The translations under genes were made by a program, and so were the position numbers. Under the pieces are notes generated by a model. That model saw only the letters and a list, made by a program, of their open reading frames with translations, was not told the DNA's origin and made no database searches. Positions 1,875-6,748 of a DNA stretch of 7,609 nt are shown in pieces (position 1 is the stretch's first letter; each line of letters begins with the position of its first letter). Source of the stretch: a virus (Duplodnaviria; Heunggongvirae; Uroviricota; Caudoviricetes); the IMG/VR virus record IMGVR_UViG_2693429748_000010. One strand, written 5' to 3'.

Positions 1875-2153
1875 TTACCTCCAGATCCGTTGCTGGAATG
1901 TGCGGGACGGACGCGTTGGCCGTTCGGAGTAAGGGAGCCTGACGGAGATTATCCAGTGACGGTAGTCGAGGCTAAGGGCTTTTTTAACCTCGCATCCGCG
2001 CCTGCGGTAACACTGAATGAGCCATTCGGCCTGTTCTTCAGTGCATGGGGGATGCTGGTACCAATCAGATTTAAATGCGTGAGAGCGCCGCCCGTGCCTG
2101 CTGGCAAAGACGGCTGAATTATCAGAATTGTGTAGTCTGGAATTTTGCGCCAT
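1875..2153 (-). CDS. Hypothetical 92 aa ORF, possibly a decayed or truncated relative of the 200 aa gene at 3731..4330
   Basis: True ATG at 2153 preceded by the same GGAGAAAG Shine-Dalgarno and MA start as the 200 aa gene; sequence diverges after a few codons. Stop TAA 1877..1875 ends 1 nt before the DUF968 GTG. Arg-rich odd C-terminus; coding status uncertain. Confidence 0.3.
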   Translation of the reverse strand: MAQNSRLHNSDNSAVFASRHGRRSHAFKSDWYQHPPCTEEQAEWLIQCYRRRGCEVKKALSLDYRHWIISVRLPYSERPTRPSRTFQQRIWR

Positions 2154-2219
2154 CGGCTTTCTCCGGTGGCACAGTGTTACTCAACAGGGGTTCAGCCCTG
2201 CGCTGAATTGTAGATGAAT

Positions 2220-2480
2220 TCACTCATCTTCAAAAGCAGAAAAACCAGCCTTAATCCCAGCTTCTTTCAGAGACGGCAACGATGTGACAAATTCATTTGC
2301 ACGCGAAATAAAACCATCCGTCACAAGCCCATCCACAAAATGAATTAACGCAGCTCCACTCTTCCTTTGTTGAGACTGTAAACATTTAATACGGCAGTGG
2401 CTGACAATAGCGCCATTCTCAACGCGCACAGTATAGAGGCCATCTTCACTAAAAATTTCACGTAATTCTTCGATTTTCAT
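2220..2480 (-). CDS. Hypothetical 86 aa protein; paralog of 4369..4656; candidate Rem-like by position only
   Basis: ATG at 2480 (track start at 2483 is TTG). Sequence MKIEELREIFSEDGLYTVRVENGAIVSHCRIKCLQSQQRKSGA... is very similar to the 95 aa ORF over about 70 residues, then diverges through a 1-nt indel. Preceded by promoter-like element and a short coupled leader ORF. Confidence 0.5.
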   Translation of the reverse strand: MKIEELREIFSEDGLYTVRVENGAIVSHCRIKCLQSQQRKSGAALIHFVDGLVTDGFISRANEFVTSLPSLKEAGIKAGFSAFEDE

Positions 2481-2562: not shown

Positions 2563-2592
2563 ATTCTATTCCGGCACCATCTAAAACTTCAA
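2563..2592 (-). promoter_or_regulatory. Candidate sigma70 promoter for the leader-peptide/86 aa transcript (TTGAAG-N18-TAGAAT)
   Basis: Minus-strand -35 TTGAAG (2592..2587) and -10 TAGAAT (2568..2563). Same hexamers with a different spacer recur upstream of the paralogous module (4738..4765) and again at 6089..6118. Confidence 0.35.
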
Positions 2593-2900: not shown

Positions 2901-3444
2901 TAACTTTTTTCTCTATACCAAAAGCCATAACCATTGGTTTGTACAAAATAAATTCTGCCACCTTTAGCCAATGCTCAATGCGTCTTTCACAGGTTCTTAA
3001 ACTCCATTTCGGGTGTGCATCATTCAGCAGTTCAGCCATTTTGCGTTTGGTCATCCCCCGCCCCTCATACCGTTGCCGAAGGACGCTAATCAATCCTGGA
3101 TGCTCTGCCAGCACCTCACTTATGACCCGATCAATACATAACGCCTCTGCATCAGTACAATGCGCCAGCCAGCTCTTTTGCTTACCGTTAATCATATCCC
3201 GCAAAAAAGCCTCAAGTTCAGACTTGTTCAGACCTGCTTTTTTCATCCTCCGGAGCGCCTCGTTAATTGCCGTTTTTGTCAGCTTTTTAGAGGTCAACAT
3301 CAGGTTAAACATATTCCCCGTCTTACCGCCACCAATATACGACCAGCGCCCCCACATACGTAGTTTTCCCTGAATCCAGACACTTTCCAGCGTGGTGAGA
3401 CGAAGGTGTTCTCCGCTTTTTCCTGTATTCGTTGGGTAAATCAT
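2890..3444 (-). CDS. Putative late antiterminator Q, phage 82-like family (family assignment uncertain)
   Basis: 184 aa from ATG 3444 (GGAGGG Shine-Dalgarno upstream); the track start at 3564 overlaps the upstream gene and is unlikely. Motifs LESVWIQGKLRMWGRW, RDMING, LRQRYEGRGMTKRKMAELL resemble what I recall of Q82-type antiterminators. Stop/start ATGA overlap with the YbcO-like gene; followed by terminator and tRNA as in Q-to-lysis regions. Confidence 0.5.
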   Translation of the reverse strand: MIYPTNTGKSGEHLRLTTLESVWIQGKLRMWGRWSYIGGGKTGNMFNLMLTSKKLTKTAINEALRRMKKAGLNKSELEAFLRDMINGKQKSWLAHCTDAEALCIDRVISEVLAEHPGLISVLRQRYEGRGMTKRKMAELLNDAHPKWSLRTCERRIEHWLKVAEFILYKPMVMAFGIEKKVIAF

Positions 3445-3731
3445 AAATATCCCTCCTTTCTCCAGATTTCTTGTGTGCGAAAAACACCTTCTGCATGCAT
3501 CAGGCGTAATTCTTCTTTGGTGTAATCGCTGGTTTTTACCCGCCCGTCGATTAAATCGTGGCACGAGCTACAGGCAATCGCTGCCTGCATATCGTGTGGC
3601 TTTATCGCTGTTCCGCACGTTCCCGCCAGTCGGTAATGCGCCAGCACAGACGTTTCCGGATCGTGATTGCAGTAGCCAGGAATTCTGACGGTGCACATCT
3701 GCCCCCGCGCCGCTTTACGTAAATCCACCAT
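3441..3731 (-). CDS. ybcO: YbcO-like (DUF1364) putative zinc-dependent nuclease
   Basis: 96 aa, true ATG at 3731. Cys/His pattern CTVRIPGYC...AHYRLAGTCGT...ACSSCHDLIDG; size and nin-region context match YbcO. Stop TGA overlaps the Q-like ATG; its own ATG overlaps the upstream stop (TAATG). Confidence 0.7.
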   Translation of the reverse strand: MVDLRKAARGQMCTVRIPGYCNHDPETSVLAHYRLAGTCGTAIKPHDMQAAIACSSCHDLIDGRVKTSDYTKEELRLMHAEGVFRTQEIWRKEGYL

Positions 3732-4330
3732 TACGCAAACTCCAGCAGCTGCGCGGCCACATTTTCGACTTGTTCCGGAGAGGAAAATTTACGGAACAGA
3801 ATCCAGTTCCACAGCACATTCAGAACAGATTTATAAACCTGCTGAAACTCGGTTTCGTCCATATTCGCAAACGCGATAGATTTCGCCCGACACCCACGGC
3901 TACCGTCCGGATAAAAATGCTCGGTGTAAAATCCAGCCTGAATGGTTACCCACTCGCGAAAAGCCTCAAACGACTTTAGCAATGCCGTATCACTGGTTCT
4001 GCGTGTCGCAACTGTATTCAGATATTGCTCTGCGGCTTCGCTCAGAGCTGGCGTATGTTCCCGGCCTACTGATTCACACAGGTAATCAACGAAACCGGAC
4101 ACCAGTTTTCGTTCGCGAGGCGTGATCGCCCCACCGACCGGAGTCCAGTAATCGAAACCCAGTTGCAGGAGTTTGAAAAAACGCTTGTGGAATGCGTAGT
4201 TACACACACGCTTAAAGTCTGCGTGTATCCACTCACCTATTTTGATTTGATGCAGAAAATCGCAACTCTCCGGCGTCGCCGGGAGAAGTAATCCGGAAGA
4301 GGTTTGTTTGACCAGTTGTATATGTGCCAT
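3731..4330 (-). CDS. Nin-region protein of unknown function, 199 aa
   Basis: ATG at 4330 preceded by GGAGAAAG at 6 nt spacing; the track start at 4372 lacks a ribosome-binding site. Long uninterrupted frame, coupled to ybcO-like gene. Family not recognised with confidence (possibly a DUF1367-like prophage protein). Confidence 0.6.
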   Translation of the reverse strand: MAHIQLVKQTSSGLLLPATPESCDFLHQIKIGEWIHADFKRVCNYAFHKRFFKLLQLGFDYWTPVGGAITPRERKLVSGFVDYLCESVGREHTPALSEAAEQYLNTVATRRTSDTALLKSFEAFREWVTIQAGFYTEHFYPDGSRGCRAKSIAFANMDETEFQQVYKSVLNVLWNWILFRKFSSPEQVENVAAQLLEFA

Positions 4331-4368
4331 CGGCTTTCTCCGGTGGCACGGTGTTACACAGCAGGAGT

Positions 4369-4656
4369 TCAATCCTGCTCAAGATTGTAGATGAGTTTAT
4401 TCTTCAGCAAAAGCAGAAAACCAGCCTTAAAACCAATCTCTTTCAAAACCCGTAATGATGTGACAAATTCGTCCTCACGCAAAATAAAACCGTCCGTCAG
4501 AAGTCCATTACAAAAATAAAATAACACAGCACCGCTCTTCCTTTGTTGAGATTGCAAACATCTAATGCGGCAATGGCTGACAATCGCTCCATTCTCAACG
4601 CGCACAGCATAGAGGCCATTTTCACTAAAAATTTCACGCAATTCTTCGATTTTCAT
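4369..4656 (-). CDS. Hypothetical 95 aa protein; paralog of 2220..2480
   Basis: True ATG at 4656. N-terminal ~70 aa nearly identical to the 86 aa paralog; C-terminus differs because of an indel-induced frame change. Confidence 0.5.
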   Translation of the reverse strand: MKIEELREIFSENGLYAVRVENGAIVSHCRIRCLQSQQRKSGAVLFYFCNGLLTDGFILREDEFVTSLRVLKEIGFKAGFLLLLKNKLIYNLEQD

Positions 4657-4658
4657 CT

Positions 4659-4703
4659 TCAGAATCCTTCCAGATAAATAGCTCTCCCCTGTTCGGGGTC
4701 CAT
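4659..4703 (-). CDS. Candidate leader peptide, 14 aa (MDPEQGRAIYLEGF)
   Basis: Same arrangement as 2480..2527; stop TGA lies 2 nt before the ATG of the 95 aa gene. Confidence 0.25.
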   Translation of the reverse strand: MDPEQGRAIYLEGF

Positions 4704-4737
4704 CCCTCTTCTCCCTGCGCGCTACTTAAGTGAGTCG

Positions 4738-4765
4738 ATTCTATCTGCGAAGGTGCGCGAATCAA
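4738..4765 (-). promoter_or_regulatory. Candidate sigma70 promoter (TTGATT-N16-TAGAAT) for the leader-peptide/95 aa transcript
   Basis: Minus-strand -35 at 4765..4760 and -10 at 4743..4738; hexamers conserved with the 2563..2592 copy while the spacer diverged. Confidence 0.35.
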
Positions 4766-4828: not shown

Positions 4829-4905
4829 TTAAGTGCGGGTGCGTTGAGGATGCCTGACACATCAGAGGTGGGCGGGGATGGGATCAGCTCCCCGCCCGGT
4901 CACTC

Positions 4906-5061
4906 TTACTTCCTGGATTCGTAGTCTACGAAGACAGCGACCTCCGTCTGGCCGGTTCGGATTCGTACCTCACAGAGGTCTTTCCTCGTTACCAGTGCCG
5001 TCACTATGACGGTTAAACAGATGACGATCAGGGCGATTAACATCGCCTTTTGCTGCTTCAT
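4906..5061 (-). CDS. hok: Hok-family type I toxin (51 aa) with variant C-terminus
   Basis: MKQQKAMLIALIVICLTVIVTALVTRKDLCEVRIRTGQTEVAVFVDYESRK: first 44 residues identical to E. coli HokD as I recall it, last 7 differ. AAGGAGAAG Shine-Dalgarno 6 nt upstream of a true ATG. Track ORF is an in-frame upstream extension. Confidence 0.75.
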   Translation of the reverse strand: MKQQKAMLIALIVICLTVIVTALVTRKDLCEVRIRTGQTEVAVFVDYESRK

Positions 5062-5118
5062 AGCCTGCTTCTCCTTGCCTTTCGGCATGTAAGAGGCTAA
5101 CCTACATGTGCAAAGCAT

Positions 5119-5283
5119 GAAATTGGCCTCAGATTAATGTTAAGCGTCTTGCCGGACGCGTAATGTTAACTGGGGCTTTTCTCTATCTGCCTTTTGGTGT
5201 TCATGCCTGAAGCAGATAGCCTCAAGCACCCGCAGTCATTCTACTTACCTCGCCAATATGAAATCAATCAGAAAGGTGCCCCA
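5119..5283. repeat. hok leader/promoter repeat, copy B
   Basis: Near-identical to 6445..6604; partial diverged copy at 6626..6748. Confidence 0.8.
5238..5267 (-). promoter_or_regulatory. Candidate promoter of hok locus B (TTGATT-N18-TAGAAT)
   Basis: Minus-strand -35 at 5267..5262 and -10 at 5243..5238, about 170 nt upstream of hok; identical element at 6559..6588. Confidence 0.4.
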
Positions 5284-5288
5284 TAAAA

Positions 5289-5975
5289 TCACTCCTTCTC
5301 TTCTTTACCGTAGTGGAGTTGACCAATTTTGATAAGAGGGCGTCCCTGAGATTTGCGGTGTAGATTGGTATCGCGCAGAGAATACACACAGCCACAATAT
5401 TCCTGCTGATAGAATTTTTCGCGCTTGCTGATTTCAATCATACGGGACGAGCCGCCCTGCTTGCGCCAGTTATAATCCCAGTACACCATGCCCGGATAAT
5501 GCGCGACGGCTCGCCGCCCACAGTCGTTAACCTGCTGCATATTTTTCCAGCGTGAAATGCCCAGTGAACTGCTGATCACACTGAAACCATTTTCAGCGGC
5601 GTACAGCGCTGTCCGCTCAAAACGCATGTCAAAACACATGGTGCAACGGATCCCTCGTTCGGGCTCCCATTCCATTCCTTTGGCTCGTTCAAACCAGTTG
5701 TCTGTGTCGTAATCAGCATCAATAAACGGCACGCCGTGTTGTTCAGCAAAGCGAATATTCTCATCCTTACGAATTAAATACTCTTTCTGAGGATGAATGT
5801 TCGGGTTGTAGAAAAAGATGGTGTAGTCGATTCCCGAGGCCTGAAGCGCCTCCATCACCTCACCGGAACATGGAGCACAGCAAGAGTGCAGTAGTAGTTT
5901 GTTTGCCCCGTTTGGGAGCTCCAATTTGGGCCGTTTGAAATCAGCAACTGTCATAAATATGTTTATTGGGGTCAT
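5289..5975 (-). CDS. queH: QueH-like (DUF208) putative epoxyqueuosine reductase
   Basis: 228 aa with [10 protein letters not shown] near the N-terminus plus [18 protein letters not shown] and [11 protein letters not shown], which match the conserved Cys-containing motifs I associate with DUF208/QueH. No clear Shine-Dalgarno at either candidate ATG (5975 or 5954). Confidence 0.55.
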
Positions 5976-6034
5976 AAAAATATCAAAGAGTGTAGCATTA
6001 GAACGGGGCTATCGGAAACAGATGTGTGACTGCT

Positions 6035-6082
6035 CCCCGCCCGGTCACTCTTACTTCCTGGATTCGTAGTCTACGAAGACAG
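6035..6082 (-). pseudogene. 3' fragment of a hok-B-type gene (last ~9 codons, stop and start of 3' UTR)
   Basis: Matches 4887..4934 of locus B almost exactly; bounded by N at 6083 on one side and divergent sequence leading to the QueH-like gene on the other. Confidence 0.5.
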
Positions 6083-6137
6083 NTTTTGATTCTATTCCGG
6101 CACCATCTAAAACTTCAAACGCGTTGAAAATAAAAAC

Positions 6138-6156
6138 AAAAACCCGCCGAAGCGGG
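6138..6156 (-). terminator. Rho-independent terminator of hok locus C
   Basis: Minus-strand CCCGC-TTCG-GCGGG followed by TTTTTGTTTTTATTTTC. Confidence 0.6.
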
Positions 6157-6226
6157 TTAAGTGTGGGTGCATTGAGGATGCCTGACCCATCAGAGGTGGC
6201 GAGGGATTTCTCCCCCGCCTGGTCTC

Positions 6227-6382
6227 TTACTCCTCAGGTTCGTAAGCTGTGAAGACAGCGACCTCCGTCTGGCCGGTTCGAATTCGTACCTCGCAGAGGT
6301 CTTTCCTCGTTACCAGTGCCGTCACTATGACGGTTAAACAGATGACGATCAGGGCGATTAACATCGCCTTTTGCTGCTTCAT
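6227..6382 (-). CDS. hokD: Hok-family type I toxin, HokD-like (51 aa)
   Basis: MKQQKAMLIALIVICLTVIVTALVTRKDLCEVRIRTGQTEVAVFTAYEPEE matches E. coli HokD (RelF) as I recall it. Same Shine-Dalgarno and leader as locus B. Confidence 0.8.
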   Translation of the reverse strand: MKQQKAMLIALIVICLTVIVTALVTRKDLCEVRIRTGQTEVAVFTAYEPEE

Positions 6383-6444
6383 AGCCTGCTTCTCCTTGCC
6401 TTTCGGCACGTAAGAGGCTAACCTAGATTTGCCGTTCATAGATT

Positions 6445-6604
6445 GAGCCTCAGATTAATGTTAAGCGTCTTGCCGGACGCGTAATGTTAACTGGGGCTTT
6501 TCTCTATCTGCCTTTTGGTGTTCATGCCTGAAGCAGATAGCCTCAAGCACCCGCAGTCATTCTACTTACCTCGCCAATATGAAATCAATCAGAAAGGTGC
6601 CCCA
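6445..6604. repeat. hok leader/promoter repeat, copy C
   Basis: Near-identical to 5119..5283. Confidence 0.8.
6559..6588 (-). promoter_or_regulatory. Candidate promoter of hok locus C (TTGATT-N18-TAGAAT)
   Basis: Identical to the locus B promoter element. Confidence 0.4.
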
Positions 6605-6625
6605 NNNNNNNNNNNNNNNNNNNNN
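6605..6625. other. Assembly gap (21 N) inside the hok-leader repeat array
   Basis: Run of N flanked on both sides by copies of the same hok leader sequence. Confidence 0.95.
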
Positions 6626-6748
6626 GAAATTGGCCTCAGATTAATGTTAAGCGTCTTGCCGGACGCGTAATGTTAACTGGGGCTTTTCTCTATCTGCCTT
6701 TTGGTGTTCATGCCTGAGACAGATAGCCTCAAGCACCCGCTGCAATTC
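6626..6748. repeat. hok leader repeat, third diverged partial copy with different -35 region
   Basis: Matches the leader through the TAGAAT -10, then diverges (TTGCGG-N16-TAGAAT instead of TTGATT-N18-TAGAAT). Several point differences, so not a simple assembly duplicate. Confidence 0.6.

Follow-up and report, generated by a model that had tools for sequence, protein, structure and literature searches.

In lambdoid phages, the dosage of the Q antiterminator sets the timing of lysis and, in Stx phages, that of toxin release; in lambda, this dosage depends on N antitermination through the nin region. The hairpin analysed here, SL1, is the first of two hairpins in an mRNA leader of about 60 nt in lambda-like prophages of enteric bacteria. 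With the lambda-type nut site it shares a short 5-bp hairpin in a lambdoid early transcript, a conserved loop on a variable stem, and a location upstream of genes leading to Q. However, the nut boxB is a GNRNA pentaloop, whereas the SL1 loop has 6–7 nt and reads YUGAAC(A). The nut sites occur in two copies after PL and PR, while SL1 is present once per genome in the nin region, and the same SL1 loop is found across phages with different immunity regions and Q types. With the put RNAs of HK022, the leader shares a promoter-proximal pair of hairpins in a lambdoid phage without N-type antitermination. The put regions, read directly, are nevertheless unrelated to it in sequence and structure, and the put RNAs follow PL and PR without a translation start, unlike the leader.

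The window, a stretch of 7,609 nt of viral DNA, contains two similar modules, A and B, and all genes around both hairpins are encoded on the minus strand. Module B is arranged as hok/sok, rem (95 aa), DUF1367, ybcO and a Q-like antiterminator (DUF1133/Phage_antitermQ). Module A consists of a tRNA-Met gene followed by rem (86 aa), a 92-aa ORF, a YdfU-like DUF968 gene, rusA and an ORF cut by the window edge, which corresponds to Q by its position in homologous records, where Q follows rusA (689R5, PPompW). The small upstream gene is named rem in public phage records. The two modules are 88% identical over approximately 500 nt, and the likeness stops just past the start codon of the downstream gene. 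The coordinates of the features are collected in Table 1.

Table 1. Leader features and flanking genes of modules A and B in the window.
Feature	Position	Strand	Description
-10-like hexamer TACAAT, copy A	2207..2212	-	start predicted at about G2201 (C2200 at 7 nt)
-10-like hexamer TACAAT, copy B	4384..4389	-	family -10 spacing; start predicted at about 4379–4380
SL1, copy A	2184..2201	-	G-CAGGG / CUGAAC / CCCUG-U; 5 Watson-Crick pairs plus G.U; 6-nt loop
SL1, copy B	4360..4379	-	AGCAGGA / UUGAAC / UCCUGCU; 7 bp
Linker, copy A	2174..2183	-	UGAGUAACAC; single-stranded in the predicted fold
SL2, copy A	2146..2173	-	UGUGCCA / c-CGG-AGAAAG-CCG-a / UGGCGCA; about -15.7 kcal/mol
SL2, copy B	4324..4349	-	GUGCCA / c-CGG-AGAAAG-CCG-a / UGGCAC
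Whole leader, copy A	2143..2204	-	covariance model R1: 35.0 bits, E 1.5e-10
Whole leader, copy B	4320..4381	-	covariance model R1: 38.8 bits, E 9e-12
rem upstream of copy A	2220..2480	-	86 aa; phrog_340
rem variant upstream of copy B	4369..4656	-	95 aa
First gene behind copy A	1875..2153	-	92-aa ORF, start AUGGCGCA; ydfU-like (DUF968) and rusA next
First gene behind copy B	3731..4330	-	DUF1367 (NinB/Orf-like recombination mediator), start AUGGCACA

The window appears to be put together from prophage pieces, as a scaffold or patchwork, and not to be one clean locus. It includes 21 N at 6605–6625, a single n at 6083 and another at 2629, the latter inside the tRNA-Met gene (2626–2700), as well as duplicated blocks, for instance around 4878–4945 and 6034–6082. 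Three Rfam matches to sok/hok-leader (117, 112 and 67 bits) were observed on the minus strand at 5056–5231, 6377–6552 and 6558–6738, together with two complete hok ORFs (4906–5118 and 6227–6439); the third sok copy is broken by the N run. Between two of the hok/sok copies, a 228-aa ORF with a CCAPC motif (5289–5975, minus strand) was found, which this motif makes a candidate QueH-like protein (epoxyqueuosine reductase, DUF208). Additionally, weak isrK-like Rfam matches (20–26 bits, under the gathering score) are present on the minus strand at 2790–2863 and 6137–6218. The first is located just downstream of the Q-like gene, with a terminator-like hairpin beside it, and may represent the short leader RNA of the late promoter; the second lies near a hok/sok copy with no Q gene close by.

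On the plus strand, copy A of SL1 is composed of CAGGG (2185–2189), GTTCAG (2190–2195) and CCCTG (2196–2200), and copy B of AGCAGGA (4360–4366), GTTCAA (4367–4372) and TCCTGCT (4373–4379). The first-pass annotation of this DNA had placed both hairpins, their arms and their loops exactly, and its description of stems that differ in sequence yet pair, with nearly identical loops, is accurate. Since the genes lie on the minus strand, the RNA loops read CUGAAC (copy A) and UUGAAC (copy B), and G2201.U2184 forms the sixth pair of the copy A helix. Copy A folds at -6.1 kcal/mol (z -2.8; 1 of 200 shuffles as good) and copy B at -9.8 kcal/mol (z -4.0; 0 of 200). The hairpin had been called intergenic, but copy B is not strictly so: its loop UGA (4371–4369) is the stop codon of the 95-aa rem ORF. 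Two alternative pairings around copy A were rejected: an extended AUUCA/UGAGU helix, absent in copy B and other types, and pairing of the loop with the 5′ flank UUCAG, which is not conserved. A further occurrence of the SL1 loop motif, CAGGU-CUGAACAA-GUCUG, whose stem is weak and includes two G.U pairs, was seen inside the Q-like gene (3219–3240, minus strand); with 5 bits under model R1, it is probably a chance match.

Between copies A and B, one loop-proximal pair is fully compensated (G-C to A-U), and the other stem changes are one G.U to G-C and one mismatch to A-U. With a single compensated pair, the covariation case that had been drawn from the two window copies alone is thin, and it is the homologues that carry it. 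The exact Shine-Dalgarno flank occurs in 113 viral contigs, among which only a few hairpin haplotypes are present; their outermost pair is G.U, G-C or A-U, and single mismatches are rare. Phage mEp460 carries GCGGGG-CUGAAC-UCCCGC, which adds a second compensated position. In vB_EcoS-689R5, GCCAG-cCUGAACaa-CUGGC follows a terminator, with no rem upstream; here the stem is wholly different and the loop is kept. A loose pattern for viral contigs, CTTTTG...TCATCTACAAT, returned mostly chance matches and was discarded.

More distant relatives were chosen from the genome collection by similarity of the DUF1367 protein and not by the hairpin. This selection comprised 37 loci from Escherichia, Shigella, Salmonella, Citrobacter, Kluyvera, Leclercia, Enterobacter, Klebsiella, Pantoea, Erwinia, Serratia, Siccibacter, Silvania, Atlantibacter and Pluralibacter. 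The same upstream layout was found in 35 of them, which is every locus with a match from the gene start: a -10-like box, a short hairpin whose loop CUGAACA caps a stem of any sequence, a linker in which ACCUG is frequent, and UGCGCCA-(Shine-Dalgarno)-AUGGCGCA. The hairpin is present in prophages of at least 14 Enterobacterales genera. In 28 leaders of the protein-selected loci, the SL1 pairs were distributed as GC 13/AU 11; CG 9/UA 9/UG 4/AU 3; CG 22/AU 3/UA 2; GC 15/AU 12; and an invariant G-C, while slid registers were only 21–36% paired. No column shuffle out of 500 reached the observed covariation score for these leaders (shuffle counts, not probabilities). Family-wide, double changes are seen at 4 of the 5 core pairs of SL1. 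In SL2, 98% of helix positions are paired, CG is exchanged for UA and GC for AU, and double changes occur at 2–3 pairs. RNAalifold independently predicts the same two helices. Pairing is thus conserved in homologous intergenic regions of other prophages, as the first-pass annotation had proposed to check, and its reading of a selected RNA structure is borne out.

A covariance model, R1, was seeded with the 28 leaders, none of which is of the window type. It recovers both window copies, with every other match in the window at 7 bits or below, and in its alignment the loop of the window type lacks one base. Mixed-type alignments were made through the covariance model, as MAFFT set the window type one column out of register, and 90% of cells are paired in 48 distinct sequences with the window type included. 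The pair counts of alignments A3 and A4 are biased towards the structure: some of their sequences had passed a filter for a stem of at least 4 bp, and A4 was fitted to the model. For a test with unselected arms, viral contigs were scanned with a pattern of the loop and SL2 only, yielding at least 120 loci, with 70 distinct elements among the matches listed. Outward from the loop, SL1 pairing in these 70 elements is 0.97, 1.0, 0.96, 0.96 and 0.94, then 0.27 and 0.24. This collapse past the fifth position indicates a family helix of exactly five pairs, to which the window type adds a sixth on the loop side. At least 25 distinct 5-bp stems occur among the same listed elements.

The loop is nearly invariant by position, with C in 43, U in 46, G in 48, A in 48, A in 46 and C in 46 of the 48 distinct sequences, corresponding to the consensus YUGAAC(A), and the closing G-C is also nearly invariant. 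Most members have the 7-nt loop CUGAACA, and the window has the 6-nt forms CUGAAC and UUGAAC. A YUNR motif (C/U-U-G-A) occupies the 5′ side of the loop in 46–48 of the 48 sequences. A conserved loop on a freely varying stem has the look of a protein- or RNA-binding hairpin, consistent with the protein-binding style suggested at first. The core helices are 98.3% paired when read in the gene sense but 93.6% when read as antisense, with 14 G.U pairs against 3, which favours the sense RNA strand; a strand test including the loop-closing position is uninformative because C.A becomes G.U on the other strand. These observations bear on the idea that SL1 is a DNA inverted repeat, such as an operator around +1, or a chance palindrome kept by a recent duplication of the module. 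The repeat overlaps the predicted start site and the window copies are 88% identical, but the arms vary around a conserved centre, the opposite of an operator, all of the different stems in the listed matches pair, the G.U pairs point to RNA, and the element occurs in distant genera. Hence, we regard this explanation as barely credible. By eye, sigma-54 and LexA/CRP-type DNA motifs gave no fit at the element.

The second hairpin, SL2, is likewise conserved and covarying; its loop carries the Shine-Dalgarno sequence, and its stem includes the start codon. In copy A, the Shine-Dalgarno GGAG (2161–2164) lies in the apical part, and the AUG (2153–2151) is located at the base of the 3′ arm, where the U and G are paired and the A forms a bulge between helical segments. 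In copy B, the corresponding positions are 4338–4341 and 4330–4328. With energies of -15 to -16 kcal/mol, SL2 holds the start codon in a stable, conserved and G+C-rich helix of 6–7 bp. SL1 is found 5′ of SL2 in all members, at a distance of about 10–20 nt. The leader moves as a unit that comprises the -10 box, SL1, the linker, SL2 and the first eight coding bases (AUGGCRCA). The shared Shine-Dalgarno sequence recognised by the first-pass annotation is present; what it missed is that this sequence sits inside a second conserved hairpin sequestering the AUG, that a -10 box lies at a fixed distance, and that both copies belong to a leader module with a wide distribution beyond this window.

Statements on promoters refer to consensus matches, that is, to sequence prediction. 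A -10-like box, meaning a hexamer that agrees with TATAAT in 4 or more of its 6 positions, A2 and T6 included, is located 5′ of the loop at 12 nt in 39 and at 11 nt in 11 of 53 distinct elements. A start 6–7 nt from this box places the predicted +1 on the first paired base of SL1, exactly where pairing stops. Several promoter classes were distinguished: TTGACC/TTGACT/TTGACG-18-CATAAT, TTGATT-17-CATAAT, TTTACA-16-TATACT and an extended -10, TGnTATTAT. Leclercia or Enterobacter prophages provide examples of the strong -35 type TTGACC-18-CATAAT, phage mEp237 has the extended -10, and the window type is represented by a PPompW-type prophage of E. coli O157 and by K-12 DLP12, upstream of ybcN. An independent scan found the promoter in L236 (TTGACC-18-CATAAT), L243 (TTGATT-17-CATAAT) and L272, and in L243 it directly follows an intrinsic terminator. 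In the window copies, the -35 matches at 3 of 6 positions and the scan does not report the site, while stronger promoter-like sites are located upstream of rem (TTGAAG-18-TAGAAT, 2592..2563; TTGATT-16-TAGAAT, 4765..4738). Given the poor -35, much of the SL1 RNA of the window type may come from the rem promoter, with SL1 internal to the transcript. In L243, an antisense promoter-like sequence (CTGACA-18-GATAAT, 10/12; 2461..2432, minus strand) was also observed over the SL1 5′ arm and the forward promoter.

The region upstream of rem shows features of its own. Approximately 75 nt are 100% identical between the modules (2484–2560 and 4657–4735, minus strand), compared with about 88% in the rem coding sequence. 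This stretch follows a promoter-like site, and as a whole it folds no better than shuffles (z +0.5). It includes a hairpin, CCCC-GAACA-GGGG, at about 2511–2523 and 4687–4699 (minus strand), also seen upstream of rem in L223 and L115; a Salmonella prophage has the form CCCU-GAAAA-GGGG, and mEp460 has CCCU-UAAA-GGGG. Two nucleotides past this hairpin is GCUAUUUA, resembling boxA (UGCUCUUUA), although the boxA-like match alone is within chance. Together, this hairpin and the boxA-like stretch look more boxB/boxA-like than SL1 does.

Stem-loops at the 5′ end of an mRNA block access of RppH and of the RNase E 5′ sensor. SL1 could accordingly be read as an ompA-type 5′ stabiliser and nothing else, with no trans partner and a loop kept for folding kinetics or for promoter escape at the DNA level. 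The helix begins exactly at the predicted +1 with pairing at chance one step further out, and searches of two phage genomes, the rRNAs and the flanking genes found no partner. For stabilisation, however, a stem suffices, which leaves the constancy of the loop unaccounted for: the stem changes freely, whereas six loop positions and the closing G-C are nearly invariant over at least 14 genera. Furthermore, the window type keeps the hairpin despite its weak own promoter. A DNA-level role of the loop at +7 to +13 may exist. As a full account of SL1, we consider pure stabilisation unlikely.

In complete phage genomes (mEp460, PPompW), one R1 site was identified per genome, between rem and nin-type genes, and sites are also present in mEp237, SPN3UB, Aeromonas phage pAEv1818 and Pectobacterium phage ZF40. 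The window type occurs in 687 of 5,426 complete E. coli genomes, in which RefSeq annotates no RNA feature at the element. The element is absent upstream of the DUF1367 homologues in a Vibrio phage and in Pseudomonas phage D3; there, the DUF1367 gene overlaps the gene before it. Among the matches listed from the at least 120 loci, a Rem-like ORF (phrog_340), which encodes the only frequent neighbouring protein, ends at the element in 57 and is absent, within the sequence covered, in 58. In 24 of the 57, the loop UGA is its stop codon (for example L234, L237, L240 and L338), as it is in window copy B, and in 14 more of the listed loci the Rem-like stop is a UAG in the SL1 5′ arm. Ribosomes finishing the Rem-like ORF on read-through transcripts would melt SL1. 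Translational coupling, one of the roles first proposed, is not supported as a general function, since an ORF ends at the element in only about half of the loci.

The same neighbourhood raises the possibility that SL1 is an operator of the Rem-like protein, whose binding would open or lock SL2 in the manner of Mu Com on mom. The analogy draws on the order of a small upstream gene, a hairpin and an adjacent hairpin sequestering the start codon of the next gene, which is shared with com-mom, on the frequent ending of the Rem-like ORF at the element, often within the loop itself, and on the homology of the Rem-like family across genera. In contrast to the Mu system, no zinc-finger Com-like protein is present and the Rem-like neighbour is missing at half of the loci. 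The family has no conserved cysteines, and a structure model of the protein (pLDDT 81) gave no match to solved folds. We hold this operator to be quite improbable.

The operon behind the leader ends in a Q antiterminator in all 12 loci inspected, with at least three Pfam Q families represented. At least four unrelated first genes follow the module, always beginning with the start given for copy A in Table 1: DUF1367 (NinB/Orf-like), the 92-aa ORF, short ORFs of 26–36 aa and a protein of about 130 aa. The mosaic joint lies after codon 3 of the first gene, so that unrelated proteins receive their first residues (Met-Ala-Gln/His) from the regulatory RNA. In the short first ORFs (MAQ...ASDF(L/F)...AA; L349, L364, L390, L394, L404 and others), the stop overlaps the next start by ATGA. 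By eye, the N-terminal motif of the ~130-aa protein resembles a LexA DNA-binding domain or repressor.

Several conventional functions were compared with these features. Neither copy of SL1 is an intrinsic terminator: SL1 is followed by UUGAGUAAC or GUGUAACAC with no U-run, as had been noted at first, and the scan lists no terminator at either copy. An RNase III site, which was among the initial candidates, requires about two helical turns (roughly 20 bp), and the helix of only 5–7 bp with chance-level pairing beyond it does not provide them. Membership in the nut/boxB class, also suggested initially, is contradicted by the loop of 6–7 nt, the single copy per genome, the location in the nin region and the lack of a nearby boxA (YGCUCUUWA, up to one mismatch), of which none occurs near 2143–2212 or 4320–4389 and three occur in the whole window against 5.8 expected. 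An Rfam 15 scan of the window with E up to 1 reported nothing at 2143–2204 or 4320–4381. Literature searches on the leader, its neighbouring genes, nin-region promoters and the literal sequences found no description of it, and papers on the Pas/AgvB sRNAs were set aside, as they concern other loci.

Another proposal is that SL1 is a processive-antitermination signal like nut or put, replacing N in N-less lambdoid prophages. The nascent hairpin, with or without Nus factors of the host, would modify RNA polymerase so that it passes terminators on the way to Q; the nascent put RNA confers such resistance to terminators in cis. SL1 is positioned at the very start of a transcript that must reach Q, some promoter classes directly follow an intrinsic terminator, the annotations of PPompW_699 and mEp460_ev081 contain no N gene, and a promoter-proximal two-hairpin RNA recalls put. 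Against this, boxA is missing nearby and the loop does not have the form of a GNRA-like pentaloop; put shows no sequence relationship, and R1 finds no site in HK022, where the best match (11 bits) lies elsewhere in the genome. Moreover, SL2 holds the Shine-Dalgarno sequence and the AUG, which points to translation, and mEp237 has the element together with lambda-type P and Ren genes in the part of its genome examined. On balance, an antitermination signal appears very unlikely.

The YUNR motif also fits an antisense or small-RNA target that would kiss at the U-turn, as in hok/sok or CopA/CopT. In the window type, hok/sok lies just upstream, and the Sok sequence UGUUCA is complementary to UGAACA; this six-nucleotide complementarity is nevertheless at chance level, and most family members have no hok/sok nearby. 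Hairpins with GUUCAG or UGUUCA loops are no more frequent than chance in two phage genomes and the window, no conserved complementary hairpin was detected in the complete phage genomes, and 16S, 23S and 5S rRNA contain no match to the loop complement of 6 nt or more. Such pairing is, in our judgement, highly improbable.

From the sequence evidence, we favour, at a probability of roughly 0.55, the reading that the leader is a cis-acting, promoter-coupled two-hairpin module heading a nin-type operon that ends in Q, working as follows. The module would give the nin/Q operon its own start point, and transcripts from the predicted promoter would begin with SL1 flush at the 5′ end. There, SL1 would block RppH and the RNase E 5′ sensor and shield the mRNA from 5′-end-dependent decay, while presenting an anticodon-loop-like U-turn (YUNR) loop to a putative trans-acting factor. 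That the loop stays constant while the stem varies freely speaks for a factor that these hosts or phages have in common and that recognises the loop by its sequence. SL2 (about -15 kcal/mol) would throttle translation initiation of the first gene, and since a poorly translated first gene normally leaves a transcript open to Rho, SL2 would limit Q as well. In combination, SL1 and SL2 would determine how strongly the first gene is translated and, by polarity, how much Q is made; the leader probably sets the expression level of the Q-terminal operon. As a more tentative extension, well short of even odds, SL1 might be an anticodon-arm-shaped recognition hairpin (5 bp plus CUGAACA) fused to the promoter +1, through which a conserved host or phage factor decides on stabilisation, translation or elongation of the Q mRNA.

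In place of the N-dependent route of lambda, this compact promoter-plus-leader arrangement stands before a Q-ending operon in many prophages, namely of E. coli, Salmonella, Klebsiella, Citrobacter, Enterobacter, Pantoea and Serratia. If the proposed working is correct, the leader would offer a small, easily mutated handle on late-gene timing in N-less lambdoid prophages and would add a strongly covarying RNA motif beyond those in Rfam. If the recognition-hairpin reading were also true, the element would represent a previously unrecognised RNA checkpoint for the early-to-late switch, common to lambdoid prophages, those of EHEC among them, whose immunity regions, first genes and Q families are unrelated.

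Besides the phage antitermination sites and com-mom, other described RNAs resemble parts of the leader. SL1 is predicted to start at, or within 1–2 nt of, the 5′ end, as in ompA-type 5′ stabilisers, but these have no loop sequence requirement, whereas the SL1 loop is nearly invariant. SL2 pairs the AUG into a stem, as does the replicase operator of the MS2/Qbeta type. Compared with these operators and with other leaders that sequester the Shine-Dalgarno sequence and AUG, SL2 has its Shine-Dalgarno sequence exposed in the loop and no known repressor, and it is always coupled to SL1 and a promoter. In the case of the anticodon arm, the likeness is a resemblance only, as position 37 is C and not a purine and the window loop has 6 nt. 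It includes the 5-bp stem and 7-nt loop C-U-GAA-C-A, shared with the anticodon-arm mimic of the thrS operator, the equivalents of C32, U33 and A38, and a tRNA-Phe-like GAA triplet.
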